Assembly: GCA_964624435.1 (NCBI GenBank)
Contig: CAZUYV010000001.1
Span: forward strand, 1-46,054
Direction: 5' to 3'
DNA: 46,054 bases
DNA from: an uncultured Micavibrio sp.
GTDB taxonomy: Bacteria; Pseudomonadota; Alphaproteobacteria; Micavibrionales; Micavibrionaceae
This document shows, piece by piece, positions 1-46,054 of this stretch. The position numbers and the translations under genes are program-made. Position 1 is the stretch's first letter. Every line of letters starts with the position of its first letter. The notes beneath the pieces were generated by a model, which was given only the letters and a program-made list of their open reading frames with translations, searched no databases and was not told where the DNA came from.

Positions 1-55
1 CAAAAGCCGGCTGAATACGATTTTCACGAATATTTTTAAGCACCGGTGCAGTCTT
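1..55. repeat. Terminal overlap copy 1 (identical to 46000..46054)
   Basis: Exact 55/55 match of first and last 55 nt. Confidence 0.95.
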
Positions 56-34887: not shown

Positions 34888-35634
34888 TTAGTTGGCTATT
34901 TTTTGGCCTTTGAACTTATTGATAAAGTACACTTGGCCTTTTCCAGTTATTTTGGGAGTGCGTGTAATGCGTATGGTGCCGTCTGAACCGTTGCGTGATC
35001 CGGTCTTGACTTCCATTAGTTTGAGATCCATTGAGCGTTGTGTGGGCATGTTATACTGCTCTCCGTGGCTCATGAGGTATCCTTCTTTGCGGAGTGTGAT
35101 GAATAGGCGATTTTGACCGATGTCGATACCGTTCTGCTTCAGCAGTTTAGCGAGTTCGCCGACAAGGATTGAATCATTTGAGATTTGGAGCGATTCTGCG
35201 AATAGTTTTAATGGCTTGTCCGCTTCAATTTGAGCTTCCAGCTGCTCGGTCTTCTCGACTTGTCCGACAAGAGCAATTAAAGCTTCTTTGTAGTTCTGGG
35301 GTAGTTGGGGATTTTGTTGATACGATCCAGTTATGCGAATTTGAGGCAAAACTTCGTGAGTGATCCAGCGTTTGAATGCTTTGGCTTCGGGCTTGCGGCT
35401 ACCTAAGATTAAGGTGTACATGCCGTATTCGTTAACAATATGGACTTCTCCCTGACGACCTATGTTGAACATAGACCGTTCATCATCTTCTAATCTGGCA
35501 ATTGCTTGCGTTGGATTAGAAATTTCTAAGATGTCGCAAAGGTCTTTAGCAACCATCCAAGGTTGCCCATTAATGATTACGGTGCGAACTTGTGCGCCTT
35601 CATACATAAATACTTGAGTTAGCATTTTCATCAT
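34888..35634 (-). CDS. Antirepressor (BRO-N domain plus KilAC/ANT C-terminal domain)
   Basis: FMYEGAQVRTVIINGQPWMVAKDLCDILEI...KAFKRWITHEVLPQIR, then an ANT-like C-terminal half. Confidence 0.8.
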   Translation of the reverse strand: MMKMLTQVFMYEGAQVRTVIINGQPWMVAKDLCDILEISNPTQAIARLEDDERSMFNIGRQGEVHIVNEYGMYTLILGSRKPEAKAFKRWITHEVLPQIRITGSYQQNPQLPQNYKEALIALVGQVEKTEQLEAQIEADKPLKLFAESLQISNDSILVGELAKLLKQNGIDIGQNRLFITLRKEGYLMSHGEQYNMPTQRSMDLKLMEVKTGSRNGSDGTIRITRTPKITGKGQVYFINKFKGQKIAN

Positions 35635-36012: not shown

Positions 36013-36336
36013 GTGATTGGAAAAAAGATTACTGAATTAAGAAATAAAAAGGGGATGACGCAATTACAAGCTGCTAAGAAATTAAAGATGCCCAGGAGTA
36101 CCTACTCTAATTATGAGCTAGACAAAAGAGAACCGGATTTTGAAATGGCGCAGAAATTGGCTTCATTCTACGAAGTTTCAGTGGATGAATTGTTGGGGAA
36201 GCCCGAAGTTTCCGCACCTAAACAAGAAACGGAGGCAGATGCTAAACGGAGAAAGGCAATGGAATTATTGGCAAAAATTAAAGATGAAAACCTGGAGCAT
36301 ACTTTGTTTCTACTAAGACAACTCAACAAGGAATAG
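36013..36336 (+). CDS. CI-like XRE-family repressor lacking a peptidase S24 domain
   Basis: GTG start; ITELRNKKGMTQLQAAKKLKMPRSTYSNYELDKREP; only 107 aa. Confidence 0.8.
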   Translation: MIGKKITELRNKKGMTQLQAAKKLKMPRSTYSNYELDKREPDFEMAQKLASFYEVSVDELLGKPEVSAPKQETEADAKRRKAMELLAKIKDENLEHTLFLLRQLNKE

Positions 36337-37376: not shown

Positions 37377-37394
37377 AAAAGCGCCCGAAGGCGC
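37374..37394 (-). terminator. Intrinsic terminator (strong leftward; stem only on the rightward strand)
   Basis: AGCGCC-CGAA-GGCGCU; a U6 tract follows only on the minus strand. Confidence 0.6.
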
Positions 37395-37531
37395 TAATCA
37401 CTTTCATCTATGTAATCGCCAGTGTCAGATGCGGTATGTAGGATATGAAGCAGTTGGTCTAATTTACCCTCTTCCGTTGTTAGAATAATTAAAGTAATCT
37501 CATCCCGTGCGCTGTCATTCATCCGCATCAT
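37394..37531 (-). CDS. 45-aa acidic protein (below cutoff)
   Basis: MMRMNDSARDEITLIILTTEEGKLDQLLHILHTASDTGDYIDESD; AAGGTG SD; candidate promoter TTTACA-17-(TGC)AATAAT further upstream on the minus strand. Confidence 0.4.
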   Translation of the reverse strand: MMRMNDSARDEITLIILTTEEGKLDQLLHILHTASDTGDYIDESD

Positions 37532-37552
37532 CACCTTATCATATAGTCGCAA

Positions 37553-37581
37553 CGAACATTAAATATGGAAACAAATGTTCG
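37553..37581. promoter_or_regulatory. 8-bp perfect inverted repeat built from Cheo-box half-sites
   Basis: CGAACATT-N13-AATGTTCG. Confidence 0.5.
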
Positions 37582-37901
37582 ATCCCTCTGGGACTTTCAT
37601 TATTGCATGTCCCGAGTATTTTGTAAACTATTTTCTAAGCAATTCGACACAAAACGATTACTATGTAAAGGGTGGTAACTTGGCTCTCCGTTTGGGGAGA
37701 AGCCGCGTTAATGAATTCCTTAAAAAGAGGGGATATTCCCAACTCGATTTAGCGCTTCACCTTAACGTCACTGAGGGTTACATATCGCAAGTATGTAATA
37801 GCACCGCCAATCTATCAGTCTTCAAAATGAAGAAAACGGCAAGGTTTCTTGGCTGTAAGATGGACGACCTCATTGACTGGGATGAAGAAATATTCAAATA
37901 A
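37575..37901 (+). CDS. XRE-family HTH protein upstream of the integrase (possible excision/RDF regulator); true start probably TTG 37680
   Basis: HTH core RGYSQLDLALHLNVTEGYISQVCN; AAAGGGTGG SD precedes in-frame TTG 37680. Confidence 0.6.
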   Translation: MFDPSGTFIIACPEYFVNYFLSNSTQNDYYVKGGNLALRLGRSRVNEFLKKRGYSQLDLALHLNVTEGYISQVCNSTANLSVFKMKKTARFLGCKMDDLIDWDEEIFK

Positions 37902-39563: not shown

Positions 39564-39637
39564 TCGGGTTAGCCGGATTCGAACCGACGGCCTCATTCAC
39601 CCCAAGAATGCGCGCTACCAAGCTGCGCCATAACCCG
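39564..39637 (-). tRNA. trnP: tRNA-Pro (anticodon GGG), complete cloverleaf, no encoded CCA
   Basis: Hand fold of CGGGTTA-TG-GCGC-AGCTTGGTA-GCGC-G-CATTC-TTGGGGT-GAATG-AGGCC-GTCGG-TTCGAAT-CCGGC-TAACCCG-A; all four stems pair; G37; T-loop TTCGAAT. Confidence 0.85.
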
Positions 39638-39782: not shown

Positions 39783-39920
39783 ATGAGGATACCCGTTATC
39801 ATACCGGATGAACATCACGAGGAATTGCGAAGGATAGCTTTTGAAAAGAAATCGAGCATGGCTGAAGAAATTCGCAAGGCAATTGCTTTATACTTAGAAA
39901 AGGAGCGTGAGAATAAATGA
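39783..39920 (+). CDS. 45-aa ribbon-helix-helix protein (antitoxin/repressor-like; below cutoff)
   Basis: AAGGAGG SD; MRIPVIIPDEHHEELRRIAFEKKSSMAEEIRKAIALYLEKERENK. Confidence 0.65.
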   Translation: MRIPVIIPDEHHEELRRIAFEKKSSMAEEIRKAIALYLEKERENK

Positions 39921-40273
39921 ATTTTTTTGATGTATTCGCCGGAATAAAAAATCCGAACTATGTTGTGCAGAAGATAGAGACAGAGGAAGAAAGGTCGCGC
40001 ATACCTGCCGAACACTTGGAAAGAAGGAGGAAGCAGGAGTTTCATAACCTTTTAGTCGATGAAATCACAAGATCCGGCAAATTTAAAATTGAATCCGAAC
40101 ACGATCCGTTTGATATTGGTGATCCGCGAAATGTCAGATACCGGGCGGAAGTATTTGTTTTGACCCGTGATGAAATCCACCGATTGGTACAAAACACTTC
40201 AACTTATTCGCAGCACGAGATTCTTTCATTCATTTCTAAGCTTCAAGCTGATACAGCCACTGATACACATTAA
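39917..40273 (+). CDS. 118-aa protein of unknown family, translationally coupled to the RHH gene
   Basis: ATGA overlap at 39917..39920. Confidence 0.65.
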   Translation: MNFFDVFAGIKNPNYVVQKIETEEERSRIPAEHLERRRKQEFHNLLVDEITRSGKFKIESEHDPFDIGDPRNVRYRAEVFVLTRDEIHRLVQNTSTYSQHEILSFISKLQADTATDTH

Positions 40274-40298
40274 GGGATATGATAAAGGAGGAATAAGG

Positions 40299-40523
40299 GT
40301 GAAGAGTAATCTAACCACCGGACAAATGATAGATGAATTACAGAAAGGTGAAATTGCCGTAGGCATGAACGGTTTCCTTGAAAAAACGCGATTAAAACGG
40401 ACGGACTATGACGAGATCATCTATGTGGATGGCGATATAGGATCAAACAATGATTTTTTCAAGTTAAACACGTTCGCACATAGTACACGATGGAAAATAA
40501 GAAAAGCGGTTAAAGGCGAATGA
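40299..40523 (+). CDS. 74-aa protein (GTG start), weak DUF2829-like N-terminal pattern
   Basis: AAAGGAGGAATAAGG before GTG 40299; VKSNLTTGQMIDELQKGEIAVGMNG...RWKI. Confidence 0.5.
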   Translation: MKSNLTTGQMIDELQKGEIAVGMNGFLEKTRLKRTDYDEIIYVDGDIGSNNDFFKLNTFAHSTRWKIRKAVKGE

Positions 40524-40527
40524 CCCT

Positions 40528-40740
40528 CTACCTTAACAACCGCATCGTACGACCGCGAGCACTCTTTTTAGTCCAATCAATAAACCCGTTTTGCTTCAAT
40601 CTCTCCAGGTAAGCATGAACGGTACTAAGTGACGTTAACCCTGTCATAACGCTGATTTCCCGGACTGTCGGAGCCTTTTGATTCTCTCTTATGTAATTTT
40701 CAATCTTAGCCAATACGTCAAGCTGCTTTTGGGTGACCAT
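40528..40740 (-). CDS. LexA N-terminal DNA-binding-domain-only protein (70 aa, no S24 peptidase domain)
   Basis: MVTQKQLDVLAKIENYIRENQKAPTVREISVMTGLTSLSTVHAYLERLKQNGFIDW... is collinear with the LexA wHTH; GGAGGG SD before ATG 40740. Confidence 0.8.
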   Translation of the reverse strand: MVTQKQLDVLAKIENYIRENQKAPTVREISVMTGLTSLSTVHAYLERLKQNGFIDWTKKSARGRTMRLLR

Positions 40741-40767
40741 AAAATCCCTCCACATCAATTTAACCAC

Positions 40768-40796
40768 ATTATACCGAACAAACATTCGCATTTCAA
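40768..40796 (-). promoter_or_regulatory. Near-consensus promoter of the LexA-like gene
   Basis: TTGAAA (40796..40791) -17- TATAAT (40773..40768). Confidence 0.7.
40775..40788. promoter_or_regulatory. Cheo (Gram-positive SOS) box
   Basis: CGAACAAACATTCG versus CGAAC-N4-GTTCG: 9 of 10 fixed positions match. Confidence 0.65.
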
Positions 40797-40814
40797 GCGA
40801 AATTGTGGTAATAT
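40785..40814 (+). promoter_or_regulatory. Rightward promoter of the 5-gene operon
   Basis: TTCGCA -18- extended -10 TGGTAATAT (40806..40814); the -35 overlaps the Cheo box. Confidence 0.5.
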
Positions 40815-40844
40815 GGGTTCAAATAATGTGATGGAGTGATCGGA

Positions 40845-40976
40845 ATGCACCCACAATTGGTTGAAGATTGGCTGCTGAAACAGAAACGGGATTCAACACC
40901 GGAGGTTGCAGACTTCATTGATGATTTTATCCTGATGATGCAGCTTTGTATTTTCGAGGCTGATCCACAGGAATGA
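40845..40976 (+). CDS. 43-aa acidic protein (below cutoff)
   Basis: MHPQLVEDWLLKQKRDSTPEVADFIDDFILMMQLCIFEADPQE; GGAG SD. Confidence 0.45.
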   Translation: MHPQLVEDWLLKQKRDSTPEVADFIDDFILMMQLCIFEADPQE

Positions 40977-41167
40977 TGCGTCAATATCCATCCTATGATG
41001 CAGCTGTAGCTGATCTACATACCAAAGGCAAGTTCACCTTTCGCGGATCGGAAGCAGAGGAAGATATATACACGTTGGATATACAAGGAGTTAGGTATAT
41101 ATTGAAGATATCCAAAGAAGGTAAAGTAAGAATGCTTTATGAGATTAGTCCGTGGAGGGGTGATTAG
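40973..41167 (+). CDS. Hypothetical protein (64 aa)
   Basis: ATGA-coupled. Confidence 0.55.
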   Translation: MMRQYPSYDAAVADLHTKGKFTFRGSEAEEDIYTLDIQGVRYILKISKEGKVRMLYEISPWRGD

Positions 41168-41168
41168 G

Positions 41169-41462
41169 ATGGAAATTACATTTACAATGAACGAATTCAG
41201 CCTTGAGACATCGCCATATGTTGATCGGGCAACTTTGTTGGATATGCTTTCCCGTTCCGCATGGCATGAACTGCAAAAGACAAGTGATAGCGAAATTGTT
41301 GTCAGAGCAGACATGGGTGAACATAAATTGGAAGTATACTTGGAAAAGCATCCAGGTGCGGTTGATGACGGATTTATTACAATGAAGGACTATTTACATG
41401 ATCGCATTAGCGCATTAATCTTATCTATGTATCGTACAAGGGATTTGGAGGTTACGCAATGA
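41169..41462 (+). CDS. Hypothetical protein (97 aa; start MEITFTMNEF)
   Basis: GGAGGGGTGA SD before ATG 41169. Confidence 0.55.
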   Translation: MEITFTMNEFSLETSPYVDRATLLDMLSRSAWHELQKTSDSEIVVRADMGEHKLEVYLEKHPGAVDDGFITMKDYLHDRISALILSMYRTRDLEVTQ

Positions 41463-41809
41463 ACAAAAAGGATGCTCGGGAATTGATCGAATTCGCAATA
41501 GACAACAACGTTATTATGAGCCCGGACCGGGCCAGATTCCTCTATGAACATGCTGAATATCCGATGCCGCAGTACTTGATTCCAGAAGAGTTGACCGACG
41601 AAGAGCGAGAAAGGCGCTCTAAATTAGCTGAATGGCTGTTTTATCCGGCTGATGTACCGCCTAATCACTCAAATAATGTGACGCAGCGTTTCGTTAAAAG
41701 CCCGTTAGAGGACGCAATAAGGGTGCAAATTAACGGTGGTACTGATGAAGAAATCAAGAGGGAATTGCGCGGGTATGCAAGAGTATACTGGGATAAGGAA
41801 GGTGAATAG
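41459..41809 (+). CDS. Hypothetical protein (116 aa)
   Basis: ATGA-coupled. Confidence 0.6.
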   Translation: MNKKDARELIEFAIDNNVIMSPDRARFLYEHAEYPMPQYLIPEELTDEERERRSKLAEWLFYPADVPPNHSNNVTQRFVKSPLEDAIRVQINGGTDEEIKRELRGYARVYWDKEGE

Positions 41810-41810
41810 A

Positions 41811-41972
41811 ATGGATTGCCCGGTATGTGATAAAAAATTAGTTATGGCGACCGAAAACAGATTAGGTGGTGTAATGGTGTATGCCTGCTGCAAAACCGCA
41901 AGGTGCAGCTATGTATCGGAAGGATTTATTAGTCAAACAGAATTTAAGAAAGTAGCCCCTACCAATCAATAG
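41811..41972 (+). CDS. 53-aa zinc-ribbon protein
   Basis: MDCPVCDKKL...ACCKTARC; AAGGAAGGTGA SD. Confidence 0.5.
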   Translation: MDCPVCDKKLVMATENRLGGVMVYACCKTARCSYVSEGFISQTEFKKVAPTNQ

Positions 41973-41988
41973 TAGAGGCTATTTTTTT
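41953..41988. terminator. Bidirectional terminator shared by the 5-gene operon and the endolysin
   Basis: TAGCCCCTAC-N9-GTAGAGGCTA (one mismatch) followed by T7. Confidence 0.65.
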
Positions 41989-42736
41989 ATGGATTCATTA
42001 ATTCCTCAGCAATCATAAACGCCTCAATCTTCTCCAATTTTTCTAAAGCTGTATCGCTGTACGGCACATTCGGATCCTTCGCTTTCTGATACAATTCAAT
42101 CACTCGATTCGTCGTAGTCAGGGCCTTATTGACTCGCAATGATCGGGTTGCATCCACAGATAAAGATAGCTGCAGGCTGTCTACGTCCTTTCTCACTCGA
42201 TTGTAGTCATAACCCGGACACGAGGTATTCGTCAGCTCCCGGTGCGCCTTGATGTCCTTATAGTTCGGCAATAGGCTCTGTAAGGCGATAATAACCCCAT
42301 AGAGGGCTAATCGGTCAGGATCGGTCAATACATCGTAATTCATATAATCGCCGCATACCATGACATGTACGGTGTTTGCGTTGTTGCTGGCAACTCCATA
42401 TGTCCGCGATAGGATATCGTTGACCTGGTAGGCTTGCCCGTTGCGAATCATGAAGTGATAGGCAATCCCCGGCTCTCCCTTCGGTTCGTCCTGCGTTTTG
42501 GCGATATGACCGTTTGCAATGATTGTTGCCATTTGGAGATCGTTATATTTCAACGTGTTCTTTTTCGGGTAGGCATCGTGGTGCAAGACGATTCGGGTCA
42601 AGGCTCCGATATCGCGGATCCCCGTCAGCTGCTGCCAGGTATAGGCGGGATTCACTGGCAGTTGTTCGGTAATATCGAATATCTGCTTGCAACCAATTTT
42701 ACTTATTTGATTCGGTGTTAGTTGTAGAGATAGCAT
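41987..42736 (-). CDS. Endolysin, N-acetylmuramoyl-L-alanine amidase (Amidase_2/PGRP type)
   Basis: IVLHHDA...GIAYHFMIRNGQAYQV...AHRELTNTSCPG. Confidence 0.8.
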   Translation of the reverse strand: MLSLQLTPNQISKIGCKQIFDITEQLPVNPAYTWQQLTGIRDIGALTRIVLHHDAYPKKNTLKYNDLQMATIIANGHIAKTQDEPKGEPGIAYHFMIRNGQAYQVNDILSRTYGVASNNANTVHVMVCGDYMNYDVLTDPDRLALYGVIIALQSLLPNYKDIKAHRELTNTSCPGYDYNRVRKDVDSLQLSLSVDATRSLRVNKALTTTNRVIELYQKAKDPNVPYSDTALEKLEKIEAFMIAEELMNP

Positions 42737-43435: not shown

Positions 43436-46054
43436 CTATTTGGCATCTTTTTTGATTTCATTTATTGTTCGTGGCTTCTCGCCCGTCTGCTGCTCGATGA
43501 ATAAGATTAGATCCTGCATTTGTCTGAGCTCATTTAGTTTTTCATAGTAGGCATATTGTTCCGCATCAAAATCCTTTGTTAATGAGTTGATACCCAAAGA
43601 TGGCAGCCGGACCTTAGAATCTTGGTCCGCATCCTCCGGTTTTTGGAGCAATCCACTGAGTCCGCGCCCGATTTGTCCGGTAGCTTGCTCCAATGCATAA
43701 GCTGTCTTTATCGGGATGCCTACTTCATTACCAAATAGATCATATTGCTTGTCCTGCCCTTCAAAATTCTCGATCTTTTTACCTCTGAACATGTTGTAAT
43801 TTGTTGATAGCTCGATTGGCGTTTTCAACAATGGAGAAATGGCGTCCACAATCGTTTTTCCTGGGCGCGACAACTTAGTTAAATCTCCTATAGGTAGATT
43901 CAGCCCAAGCATCTTACCCTTTCCTTCCTCTCCAAAAAGGGGAATTGAAAAGTTTTCTTTCATGTAATCCGGGATATTCTCATCATCCAATCCAACAACA
44001 TCCTGCGCGTTCAACCTCGCTTTATTCACGTATTCATATTTGCGAGGATCATTCACAAACTGTTTAATCTGAAACGGAATATTGTTCTTCATCCAGCGGT
44101 AAAACGGCAGTACACGGGCTACTGTGCGACTTTCAAAAGGTGTAGTTTTGCTGTAATCAAACTGCACCTCTCTGACCTTTTTAGCTGCTTCTTCGTAGCT
44201 CATGCCCTTCTTTTCAACCGCCCATTTAAACAATGCGAACCGGTTGGCCTGATCGAAAAAGTTTCCGACTTCTTGAGAGGTTTGGAAAGCATTAAGCGGA
44301 TTTAATCGCTGCGTTACTTTCTCTTTTGGACTCTTGCTTAGATTCTTGATGGTTTGCTCAATTGCTTTTTCGGGCTCTTCACCAAACTTCGCAAATTCAA
44401 CCTGGGATAAGGCCGAAGCTGACAAGCCTTGTTTGCGATATTCGGTAAATAGAGCCGACTCTTTCCCTCCAAGAGCCTTGGCAACCTCTTCAAATCCTTG
44501 CTTGGTGTATTTGGCGATTGCTCCAGGACTCATACCACCGACATAATTATTGAACATGGCGCCGGCCTGATTCCGAACATGATAGCCCAATGAAAATAAA
44601 GCTCCGCGCTTCCAGAAGCTCTGTATCTTGTCGTATGCTTTCAGGAATGCCTTTGTTCCTTCATCCGTATTCACCGCTTGGTAACGGTCCAGAAGCTGTT
44701 TGGCGGCCTTGGTTACAATGTATTGTCCTCCTATATTGTCTGCTTGTACAACGCCATCAAGTGGATCCCCGGTTTCTTTAAGGAATTTATAATTGTTGCT
44801 GTCGATAATTTCGGCATTCTTCGGAACCGACATTCCTTTTTCATACGGAATCGCAAAGTTGGTATCGCTCAGAACCTTTCTTCTAAAGCTCACTGCATGG
44901 ATATAGTCGATTAGGCGTTTTTGTCCTATGGCAGAAGCAAAGAATGCATTGGGCTCCGTGTGATTATGACCTGCCGGCCGCGCGCCTGATTCTACCATTC
45001 TTTCGCTGATATCCTCTGCGCTACCGGTCAAAGTACGTTGATTCAATATCGCCTTTTTCGGATTACCTGTATTGTATGATCCTTGGTCTACCCGGGTTAT
45101 TTTGTCTCGAAACGCCCTTTCTTCTTGGCTCCACACATGAGTCATGTATCCTTCCATTTCTGAAATGGGGATATCGTTTTGGTAAGCAAAATCACGAATG
45201 TCATCGTTACTTTCCATGATACTTTTTGCTGCTTGCTGAATTTTGGGATCGCTCGATAGTTCTCGCACCGGCCGTTTTATCTCTTGTTGAATCATAACAG
45301 GGTTCTTTGCGGACTGTTTTAATTCCTCAATATCACTGACCAGTTTTTGAATCCGGTCAATCTTTGTGGTATTTACCGTTTGGGATTCAGTCCTCAGCTT
45401 ATCCAATTGCGTTTTTAATTCGTCCCTACGTTGCGTCAAGTAATTGAATGCCGGGCTAGGCGAAAGATCAGCAAATGCTTTATCTTTTGCTAATTGTTCC
45501 GCATTTGGAGGGACAACCTTTTTCGCATTCATTTGACGAAGATTTTTATTTTCTTCTCTGAAATACAAACGCGCCAACTGACGATCTATTTTATCCAGTT
45601 CCTGCGCACTCTGACTTATCGCAGTTTCATAAGACCTCCGCGTTTGATTGACTTCTTTGCCGAGCGATTCAACTTCTTTCCGGTGGTTGTCCATTTCCGA
45701 AAACAACTCTTTTTTGTCTGTTGTACGTCTGGATCCACCGGGGAATTCATAGCCCTTAACGTCTTCATATTGCCGTAAAGGTGCTTCAACAATTCTTCCT
45801 ACCTCATCACCCTTTTCAAGCCCGCCTGCATCCCTGGCGATTTTCCCAACCTTCAGCATATTTTCATCATTCATATAGGCCAGACTATTATCCGTCTGTT
45901 GCGCCAAATCCCGCATTGCAGTACTGGTCCCGCCTGATAATGTGTCTGTATCCCGGTAACCCTTTTTAAACATGTATCCGAGAGCGTCTTTTCCACTCTC
46001 AAAAGCCGGCTGAATACGATTTTCACGAATATTTTTAAGCACCGGTGCAGTCTT
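43436..46054 (-). CDS. 3' part of the 1044-aa virion/ejection-type protein (continues from 571..1 across the junction)
   Basis: Open frame to the contig end; the listed start at 46042 is internal. Confidence 0.8.
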   Translation of the reverse strand, partial: KTAPVLKNIRENRIQPAFESGKDALGYMFKKGYRDTDTLSGGTSTAMRDLAQQTDNSLAYMNDENMLKVGKIARDAGGLEKGDEVGRIVEAPLRQYEDVKGYEFPGGSRRTTDKKELFSEMDNHRKEVESLGKEVNQTRRSYETAISQSAQELDKIDRQLARLYFREENKNLRQMNAKKVVPPNAEQLAKDKAFADLSPSPAFNYLTQRRDELKTQLDKLRTESQTVNTTKIDRIQKLVSDIEELKQSAKNPVMIQQEIKRPVRELSSDPKIQQAAKSIMESNDDIRDFAYQNDIPISEMEGYMTHVWSQEERAFRDKITRVDQGSYNTGNPKKAILNQRTLTGSAEDISERMVESGARPAGHNHTEPNAFFASAIGQKRLIDYIHAVSFRRKVLSDTNFAIPYEKGMSVPKNAEIIDSNNYKFLKETGDPLDGVVQADNIGGQYIVTKAAKQLLDRYQAVNTDEGTKAFLKAYDKIQSFWKRGALFSLGYHVRNQAGAMFNNYVGGMSPGAIAKYTKQGFEEVAKALGGKESALFTEYRKQGLSASALSQVEFAKFGEEPEKAIEQTIKNLSKSPKEKVTQRLNPLNAFQTSQEVGNFFDQANRFALFKWAVEKKGMSYEEAAKKVREVQFDYSKTTPFESRTVARVLPFYRWMKNNIPFQIKQFVNDPRKYEYVNKARLNAQDVVGLDDENIPDYMKENFSIPLFGEEGKGKMLGLNLPIGDLTKLSRPGKTIVDAISPLLKTPIELSTNYNMFRGKKIENFEGQDKQYDLFGNEVGIPIKTAYALEQATGQIGRGLSGLLQKPEDADQDSKVRLPSLGINSLTKDFDAEQYAYYEKLNELRQMQDLILFIEQQTGEKPRTINEIKKDAK
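46000..46054. repeat. Terminal overlap copy 2 (identical to 1..55)
   Basis: Exact 55/55 match. Confidence 0.95.

Follow-up and report, generated by a model that had tools for sequence, protein, structure and literature searches.

The SOS operator of the Bacillales is the Cheo box, CGAAC-N4-GTTCG. Truncated LexA proteins encoded by phages and phage units under LexA control are both already known. Among the closest described systems, gp6 of phage GIL01, whose recognition helix has K38, was found to bind GaCACAnnTGTGtC and thereby to activate the late promoter P3 (PMC6182141), and Tum of phage 186, AntC of N15 and GfoA/GftA of the Gifsy phages are LexA-controlled antirepressors of non-cleavable repressors (PMC3121763). 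Silpe et al. 2023 described modules in which a small transcription factor (TF) is encoded divergently from ORFan small proteins of small open reading frames (smORFs) in a variable accessory locus (PMC10432266). Here, a 46,054-base stretch of DNA (43.7% G+C; contig CAZUYV010000001.1, positions 1 to 46,054, hereafter the window) was analyzed for a module composed of (i) a gene for a 70-amino-acid (aa) protein made up solely of LexA's DNA-binding domain (DBD), (ii) a Cheo-type box shared by back-to-back promoters, and (iii) a divergent five-gene operon; a second boxed unit, which encodes a 44-aa smORF, was included. We suggest, tentatively, that the 70-aa protein is a surrogate of host LexA that would escape cleavage.

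The gene of the 70-aa protein is located at 40528..40740 on the minus strand, behind a GGAGGG ribosome-binding site (RBS; 40746..40751) positioned 5 nt upstream of the ATG at 40740. The protein was found to be a single LexA_DNA_bind domain and nothing else. Pfam PF01726 was matched at E=2e-15 (56.7 bits, cut-off 23.7) and PHROG 3502 at E=1.7e-18, while the lexA equivalog TIGR00498 of NCBIfam aligned at model positions 4-65 of 203 only and at a score (50.8 bits) below its cut-off of 110.95. An AlphaFold2 model based on a 72-sequence alignment (predicted local distance difference test, pLDDT, 84) displayed three helices and a two-strand wing. When this model was searched with Foldseek, the top nine PDB matches were all LexA; the template modeling (TM) score was 0.86 to 3jso, the E. 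coli LexA-DNA complex (root-mean-square deviation 1.8 Å), and 0.86/0.84 to 1lea, the isolated DBD. Aligned with full-length LexAs, the protein extends no further than the wing (...TMRLLR), and the alignment is blank past this point, where a hinge, an Ala-Gly site and an S24 domain would follow; the wing itself is 2 residues longer than in the aligned full-length LexAs. A first-pass annotation of this DNA had read the gene as a LexA winged-helix domain that lacks everything from the hinge on, Ala-Gly site and S24 domain included, and had called for a profile search and a structure prediction, both of which give LexA. By a codon model trained on the long genes of the phage, the annotated frame was the best of six. 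A longer frame of 87 aa was rejected, as its ATG lies inside the promoter and has no RBS and the homologues begin at the methionine of the 70-aa form. A phmmer search of PDB sequences with the 70-aa sequence reached no LexA chain, whereas the structure-based search did reach LexA.

The recognition helix of the 70-aa protein reads SLSTVHAYLERLK. Its STVHAYLERLK is identical over 11 residues to the helix of a full-length, S24-containing Firmicute LexA (L014; domain identity 50%), and three canonical Cheo boxes precede the lexA gene of the latter, which makes recognition of a Cheo-type box by the 70-aa protein plausible. As judged from these residues, the predicted recognition surface is LexA-like and not gp6-like.

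The divergent intergenic region (40741..40844; 104 bp) was found to carry a Cheo-type box, CGAACAAACATTCG (40775..40788; box 1), which matches the consensus at 9 of the 10 fixed positions and is shared by the back-to-back promoters. The leftward promoter of the 70-aa gene, P_L (TTGAAA-17-TATAAT; 40768..40796, minus strand), agrees with the promoter consensus at 11 of 12 positions, with TTGAAA at 40796..40791 and TATAAT at 40773..40768. Box 1 is placed within the 17-nt spacer, beginning 2 nt past the -35 and ending 1 nt short of the -10, and the 70-aa gene would be under negative control through this box, since occupation of the spacer by a protein must block RNA polymerase. A candidate rightward promoter, P_R (40785..40814, plus strand), was read from the sequence as a weak -35, TTCGCA (40785..40790), an 18-nt spacer and an extended -10, TGTGgTAATAT (40804..40814). 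With 8 of 12 consensus positions P_R falls under the threshold of the consensus scan and is therefore weak or activator-dependent. Box 1 overlaps its -35 region, with the box centre at about -39.5, a predicted placement that is compatible with repression by occlusion of the -35 or with class-II activation. The first-pass reading of the box, of a near-consensus leftward promoter around it and of its overlap with the -35 of a rightward extended -10 promoter was confirmed at these positions.

The quality of the box was examined with a weight matrix built from 15 boxes in the promoters of lexA and DBD-only lexA genes of other loci, none of them from the window. The top two sites in the 46-kb genome were detected at 37568 (17.65 bits; box 2) and 40775 (15.51 bits; box 1), followed by a third at 11.3 bits; both of the top sites score inside the range of the training sites, and in none of 60 shuffled controls did the second-best site reach 15.5 bits. 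Boxes 1 and 2 were also the sole boxes of <=2 mismatches to lie <=30 bp from any of the 15 strongest promoter-like sites. By count, one box of <=1 mismatch was found in the genome vs 0.97 expected, and 12 boxes of <=2 mismatches vs about 16 expected. Box 1 is more than chance by its quality and position, not by count.

The design was found to recur in other loci. Nine DBD-only loci keep the S-x-ST[VI]H helix, and seven of these (L001, L002, L005, L010, L021, L043, and L044) have Cheo-like boxes at the operon promoter, frequently as tandem pairs 28-34 bp apart; for loci of altered helix, which are situated inside early operons of other phages, a box was found at the promoter in none of four. 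The promoter of L005 is likewise TTGAAA-17-TATAAT with its box 2 nt past the -35 and 1 nt before the -10, the exact geometry of 40768..40796, and the promoter-box layout of Psychrobacillus phage PVJ1 is as in the window with a 1-nt shift. The cassettes of PVJ1, L005, and L010 carry classic SOS cargo (Y-family polymerase and/or YolD), which argues for control by host LexA. The SOS-boxed cassettes of L002 (3741..5805), L005 (3706..4556), and L010 (1649..2522), which recur in Bacillales phages, combine a DBD-only LexA with a small partner of about 70 aa and with YolD, to which a Y-family polymerase may be added, and have tandem Cheo boxes 29-34 bp apart at their promoters; the partner protein of about 70 aa has no family match (for the L005 copy, no Pfam match). 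Apart from YolD and the Y-family polymerases, the partner genes in related cassettes are mostly without assigned function.

DBD-only LexA proteins were found to form a large and already annotated family, to which the single-domain 70-aa protein fits. When 1.84 billion representative proteins were searched exhaustively with HMMER, the 70-aa protein gave 955 matches, the closest of which are 45-52% identical and mostly 64-100 aa in length, and a profile search gave 202 matches at E<=1e-8, with most of the matches listed being short (about 65-110 aa). Some short relatives bear the NCBI name 'LexA family protein', and DBD-only LexAs are annotated in Bacillus phages 11143, Wrath, and BMBtp15 and in PVJ1. 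The rarity implied by the first-pass annotation was thus not upheld, given that hundreds of DBD-only LexA clusters and annotated phage examples exist and gp6 has been characterized (PMC6182141). A word-indexed homologue search with the 70-aa protein returned the query itself alone, an IMG/VR scan with a smaller alignment of its family returned one locus, and a JGI metagenome scan for the family gave no match; in none of these homologue, IMG/VR and JGI searches did close relatives of the phage turn up. Among the proteins retrieved, P0152, P0007, and P0002 lack an S24 domain and carry LexA DNA-binding domains in tandem (two, three or more) according to Pfam; they resemble 'covalent dimers' of the LexA head in a single chain. 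The DBD-only homologues of L006-L009, L045, and L046 are encoded in phage early operons, where they either follow ExoX-like or Sak-type genes or are flanked by cro and Bro-N/ANT. Altered recognition helices and box-free promoters mark those of L006-L009 and L046, which may be regulators of the gp6 type; the L045 protein has retained the canonical helix, and there is no Cheo box within the 2.2 kb of its locus.

Box 1 had been described as a single box. A second, higher-scoring box was detected at 37568..37581, where the minus strand reads CGAACATTTGTTTC (rank 1 by the weight matrix). Box 2 is positioned at about +12..+25 of a strong promoter, TTTACA-17-TGcAATAAT (37599..37627, minus strand; 10 of 12 consensus positions plus the TG extension), which precedes the acidic 44-aa smORF, MRMNDSARDEITLIILTTEEGKLDQLLHILHTASDTGDYIDESD (37394..37528, minus strand; RBS AAGGTGAT). 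The smORF is supported by a gene call in contig L003 and by a frame that was the best of six, and was without family match in the library scans, NCBIfam included. An intrinsic terminator follows directly (37380..37395, minus strand; -11.4 kcal/mol, then a U-run), and the unit (37380..37627, minus strand) is self-contained between the immunity region and int. The 108-aa XRE/HTH_3 ORF at 37575..37901 has its listed ATG inside box 2, and its first 35 residues or so overlap the divergent smORF promoter; it probably starts later, at a TTG near 37680 behind AAGGGTGG.

The CI-like repressor (107 aa; 36013..36336, plus strand) was found by domain scan to have HTH_3/HTH_19 helix-turn-helix (HTH) matches only and no S24 domain, in agreement with the first-pass annotation. 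No gene for an ImmA-like protease was found adjacent to CI, and a route through an ImmA-type protease was rejected because no such gene is present. As CI is HTH-only, the SOS input must come through LexA-controlled genes, as in Gifsy, 186, and N15 (PMC3121763). With this CI and no nearby ImmA-type protease, the smORF unit resembles a LexA-controlled antirepressor; by analogy, it looks like a Gram-positive counterpart of the antirepressors of 186, N15, and Gifsy, with the 44-aa smORF as the candidate antirepressor and CI as its presumed target. The five-gene operon had previously been proposed to supply the missing trigger for induction by DNA damage. The premise stood, in that CI is non-cleavable, but the proposal is weakened by the boxed smORF unit near the immunity region, which is the better and more economical candidate for the SOS trigger.

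The reading that we favor, with a little less than an even chance of being correct, is that host LexA represses the module and that the 70-aa protein would be an SOS-induced, non-cleavable and RecA-proof surrogate repressor. The domain identity, the missing cleavage module, the conserved helix, the quality and position of the box and the return of the design in other loci are shown; what binds box 1, whether P_R is turned up or down, and what the five operon proteins do are what we infer in this and the following paragraphs. In the lysogen, host LexA bound to box 1 would shut P_L by filling the spacer between -35 and -10, would probably also shut P_R, whose -35 region box 1 overlaps, and would hold box 2. 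After DNA damage, cleavage of LexA stimulated by RecA* would free P_L, P_R and the smORF promoter. The 70-aa protein, which has no hinge, cleavage site or S24 dimerization domain, would then accumulate and re-occupy the Cheo boxes regardless of RecA*, and may thereby limit or reset expression of the operon, the smORF and the 70-aa gene itself, possibly also of host SOS genes. The free N-terminal domain (NTD) of LexA still binds SOS boxes and represses, and its removal by ClpXP is needed for SOS induction (PMC10584840). A more extended form, in which LexA cleavage fires the antirepressor, the operon and the surrogate together, and the surrogate re-closes every Cheo box of both phage and host at any RecA* level, would constitute a self-limiting circuit and is on the unlikely side. 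If true, a sustained SOS signal would become a timed pulse, host SOS functions would be off during lytic growth, and the same would apply to the widespread SOS-boxed DBD-only lexA cassettes of Bacillales prophages, including the carriers of YolD and Y-family polymerases.

Several points weigh against repression by host LexA and a surrogate. The host, and hence its LexA and box consensus, is deduced solely from the relatives of RecT and of the LexA domain; one core half-site of box 1 has a G->A change; by simple counting, the genome is not enriched in boxes, and P is only ~0.05 when promoter association is taken alone; and a monomeric DBD without a dimerization domain may bind too weakly for repression. 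Moreover, the box centre at P_R is also at the position of a class-II activator, and gp6, the sole characterized DBD-only LexA, is an activator with changed specificity (PMC6182141). A box that overlaps the -35 in this manner is the geometry of gp6 activation at P3 (PMC6182141), and the 70-aa protein on box 1 might thus repress its own promoter and activate P_R, with a small protein that inactivates CI or serves the lytic program. The poor -35 and 8/12 score of P_R, the acidic 43-aa smORF that is ORF1 of the operon, and the described phage logic of a TF that activates a divergent smORF for a CI antirepressor (PMC10432266) are all in keeping with such a switch. We nonetheless regard it as unlikely, since the gp6 helix is diverged (SHKTAHRYL) and directed at GaCACAnnTGTGtC, whereas the 70-aa protein is canonical and the window was found to contain no match to the gp6 site at <=2 mismatches; furthermore, a box kept in the promoter spacer across co-directional cassettes is a repressor design, and a promoter with an extended -10 does not necessarily depend on an activator. 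It is quite unlikely that the operon, and not the 44-aa smORF, encodes the antirepressor that links SOS to CI: although CI is non-cleavable, box 1 overlaps P_R, and the Gifsy antirepressors belong to LexA-controlled units of several genes that lie outside the immunity region (PMC3121763), a dedicated smORF unit with the best box, a strong promoter and a terminator adjoins the immunity region, and no operon protein resembles a known antirepressor by library scans.

The near-consensus P_L, from which basal expression could be high, and the retained canonical helix would also suit a constitutive, autoregulated 70-aa protein that outcompetes host LexA and keeps the operon and smORF off even during SOS, thereby raising the threshold of induction or giving a form of immunity. 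Phage-encoded dampers of SOS or induction are known in GIL01 gp7 (PMC4551915) and AriS (PMC9043618). Such an SOS-insensitive lock is improbable, however, in that host LexA, if it binds box 1, would itself keep P_L off in the undamaged lysogen, and a permanent lock would leave a phage of non-cleavable CI without an obvious route of induction. Least probable is a fortuitous box, in which case the 70-aa protein would be a winged-helix regulator of generic type, directed at other targets, or the operon would be a moron without regulation. The single match at <=1 mismatch against 0.97 expected and the failure of single-sequence phmmer to reach solved LexA chains are in keeping with such an explanation, but the weight-matrix ranking and the shuffle test support the box, its promoter geometry is identical to that of L005, and boxes recur in 7 of 9 comparable loci.

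The five ORFs of the divergent operon were found on the plus strand to be translationally coupled, in line with the tight coupling noted in the first-pass annotation: ORF1 (43 aa, acidic; 40845..40976) with a GGAG 8 nt upstream, ORF2 (64 aa; 40973..41167) with an ATGA overlap with ORF1 at 40973, ORF3 (97 aa; 41169..41462), ORF4 (116 aa; 41459..41809) with an ATGA overlap with ORF3 at 41459, and ORF5 (53 aa; 41811..41972) with a CxxC...CC...C zinc-ribbon-like pattern; the remaining two junctions are 1-nt gaps. In each case the frame was the best of six, and independent gene calls are available for several of the ORFs, including ORF1 in contig L004. The five proteins had not been assigned to a family before, and this remained so after scans of Pfam, PHROGs, PADLOC, and NCBIfam, which gave no significant match; the only match of ORF5 was a sub-threshold one to Lar_restr_allev of Pfam (E=0.008; 16.8 bits vs a cut-off of 28.6). 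ORF3 and ORF4 gave noise only by tblastn against 50,697 phage records and no match in IMG/VR scans, ORF4 retrieved itself alone from a collection of 5.8 billion proteins, and none of the five proteins was matched by tblastn in the 44 fetched loci. The single-sequence AlphaFold2 model of ORF4 was unusable (pLDDT 55). The five ORFs are codon-consistent ORFans. A bidirectional intrinsic terminator (41953..41988) is common to the operon and the convergent endolysin gene (41987..42736, minus strand; Amidase_2 match), as had been proposed; its hairpin (41953..41981), followed by U7 on the plus strand, was calculated at -18 kcal/mol (z = -5.6) and at -18.4 kcal/mol on the minus strand.

An exact 55-bp direct repeat at both ends of the window (1..55 and 46000..46054) identifies it as a complete phage genome, assembled as a circle of about 46.0 kb; the phage is temperate and of Bacillales type. 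The lytic genes are on the minus strand, from a Cro-like HTH protein and a Bro-N/ANT protein (at about 35.8 kb) down through RecT, and then, over the junction, on to proteins of 868 and 195 aa and to the Amidase_2 endolysin that ends at 41987; the 868-aa ORF (43436..46042) probably continues over the contig junction. On the plus strand, the gene of the 107-aa CI-like HTH protein is followed by those of two membrane proteins, then of an XRE-type protein and, last, of a large serine recombinase. RecT is closest to RecTs of Geobacillus and Bacillus phages (54% identity), and the nearest genomic relatives of the 70-aa protein are in Paenibacillus, Cytobacillus, and Xylanibacillus; because the relatives of both point there, the phage host is probably a member of the Bacillales. 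The module occupies an accessory region with the recombinase on one side and the endolysin on the other. Within it, a complete tRNA-Pro(GGG) gene (39564..39637, minus strand) starts 2 nt past the stop codon of the serine recombinase on the opposite strand, is 77-80% identical to tRNA-Pro genes of Agathobaculum phages, and could be a phage-borne tRNA or attP-related. A three-gene unit (39783..40523, plus strand) converges on the 70-aa gene, 4 nt separating the two stop codons. Its products are a protein of 45 aa that is ribbon-helix-helix/Arc-like (PHROG E=1e-4) and ORFans of 118 and 74 aa, and the unit may be a toxin-antitoxin-like or regulatory moron. The Bro-N/ANT (KilAC) protein is encoded at 34888..35634 (minus strand), directly downstream of cro. 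AriS, a Listeria phage protein of the same domain type, damps the host SOS response (PMC9043618), and by this analogy the phage may have more than one SOS-modulating factor.

Truncated phage LexAs are common in databases, and only gp6, of altered specificity, has been studied. In the literature searched, the combination of the canonical helix and an own promoter built on a canonical SOS box with a divergent operon of ORFans and, as a second boxed unit, the smORF is uncharacterized, and no paper on the class of SOS-boxed, canonical-helix DBD-only lexA was found. A version specific for the LexA operator and under the control of this same operator would be a simple, transferable device for editing the SOS response, one that could cap or reset SOS, time prophage induction, or limit mutagenic polymerases or toxic cargo. 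The operator pair and the 44-aa candidate antirepressor provide a test case for the induction of prophages with non-cleavable repressors in Bacillota, where LexA-controlled antirepressors are poorly documented. If the 70-aa protein were merely a local autoregulator of a moron operon, the value would be that of routine annotation.

When compared with the known systems, the 70-aa protein resembles gp6 of GIL01 (Betatectivirus; 33% identity) in being phage-encoded, of about 66-70 aa, and limited to the LexA winged helix with no cleavage or dimerization domain; gp6 also acts at a promoter that is under host LexA control (PMC6182141). The two differ in that the gp6 helix, SHKTAHRYL, has K38, whereas that of the window protein is SLSTVHAYL with the canonical STVH, and in that the gp6 gene is inside an early operon, whereas the 70-aa gene has its own promoter around a Cheo box in an accessory region. 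Neither of the good boxes (37568 and 40775) is near structural or late genes, though the -35 of the promoter that heads the ORFan operon is overlapped by box 1. No gp6-type site is present in the window, and a late activator of the gp6 type that works through such sites was therefore rejected. The modules of 186, N15, and Gifsy share with the window a non-cleavable lysogenic repressor and LexA-boxed units outside the immunity operators, the boxes in the window being predicted. These modules are of Gram-negative origin with E. coli-type boxes, and none carries a LexA-domain paralogue of its own; no homology of the window proteins to Tum, AntC, or GfoA was found in the library scans. As in the TF-smORF modules, a small regulatory gene (the 70-aa gene, minus strand) is divergent from a small ORF (the 43-aa ORF1, plus strand) across the 104-bp intergenic region. 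However, the TFs of those modules activate their target independently of SOS, in Vibrio and Aeromonas hosts, whereas the operator in the window is an SOS-type box at a repressor position for P_L and at a position that allows either outcome for P_R.

Fold and recognition helix are shared with LexA proper, as represented by 3jso and 1lea (both at TM 0.86) and by the Firmicute LexA L014, respectively, and the operator is likewise situated in the promoter of the gene itself, as with lexA genes. The window protein differs by the missing hinge, Ala-Gly site and Ser/Lys S24 domain and by being a separate, phage-borne gene. In E. coli, the C-terminus generated by cleavage targets the LexA NTD to ClpXP; the 70-aa protein ends in ...TMRLLR, without a cleavage-generated C-terminus. 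The boxed DBD-only lexA cassettes of Bacillus phage 11143, Psychrobacillus phage PVJ1, the IMG/VR locus L005, the Paenibacillus locus L021, and L010, L043, and L044 differ from the window module in their cargo, which is co-directional and in several cases composed of a small partner and YolD with or without a Y-family polymerase, whereas that of the window is divergent and composed of five ORFans, and in the tandem pair of boxes that is frequent among them, where the window module has one. They share with it a canonical-helix DBD-only protein, Cheo-like boxes in the operon promoter, and a location that is usually beside the lysis module or the recombinase, at a prophage end.

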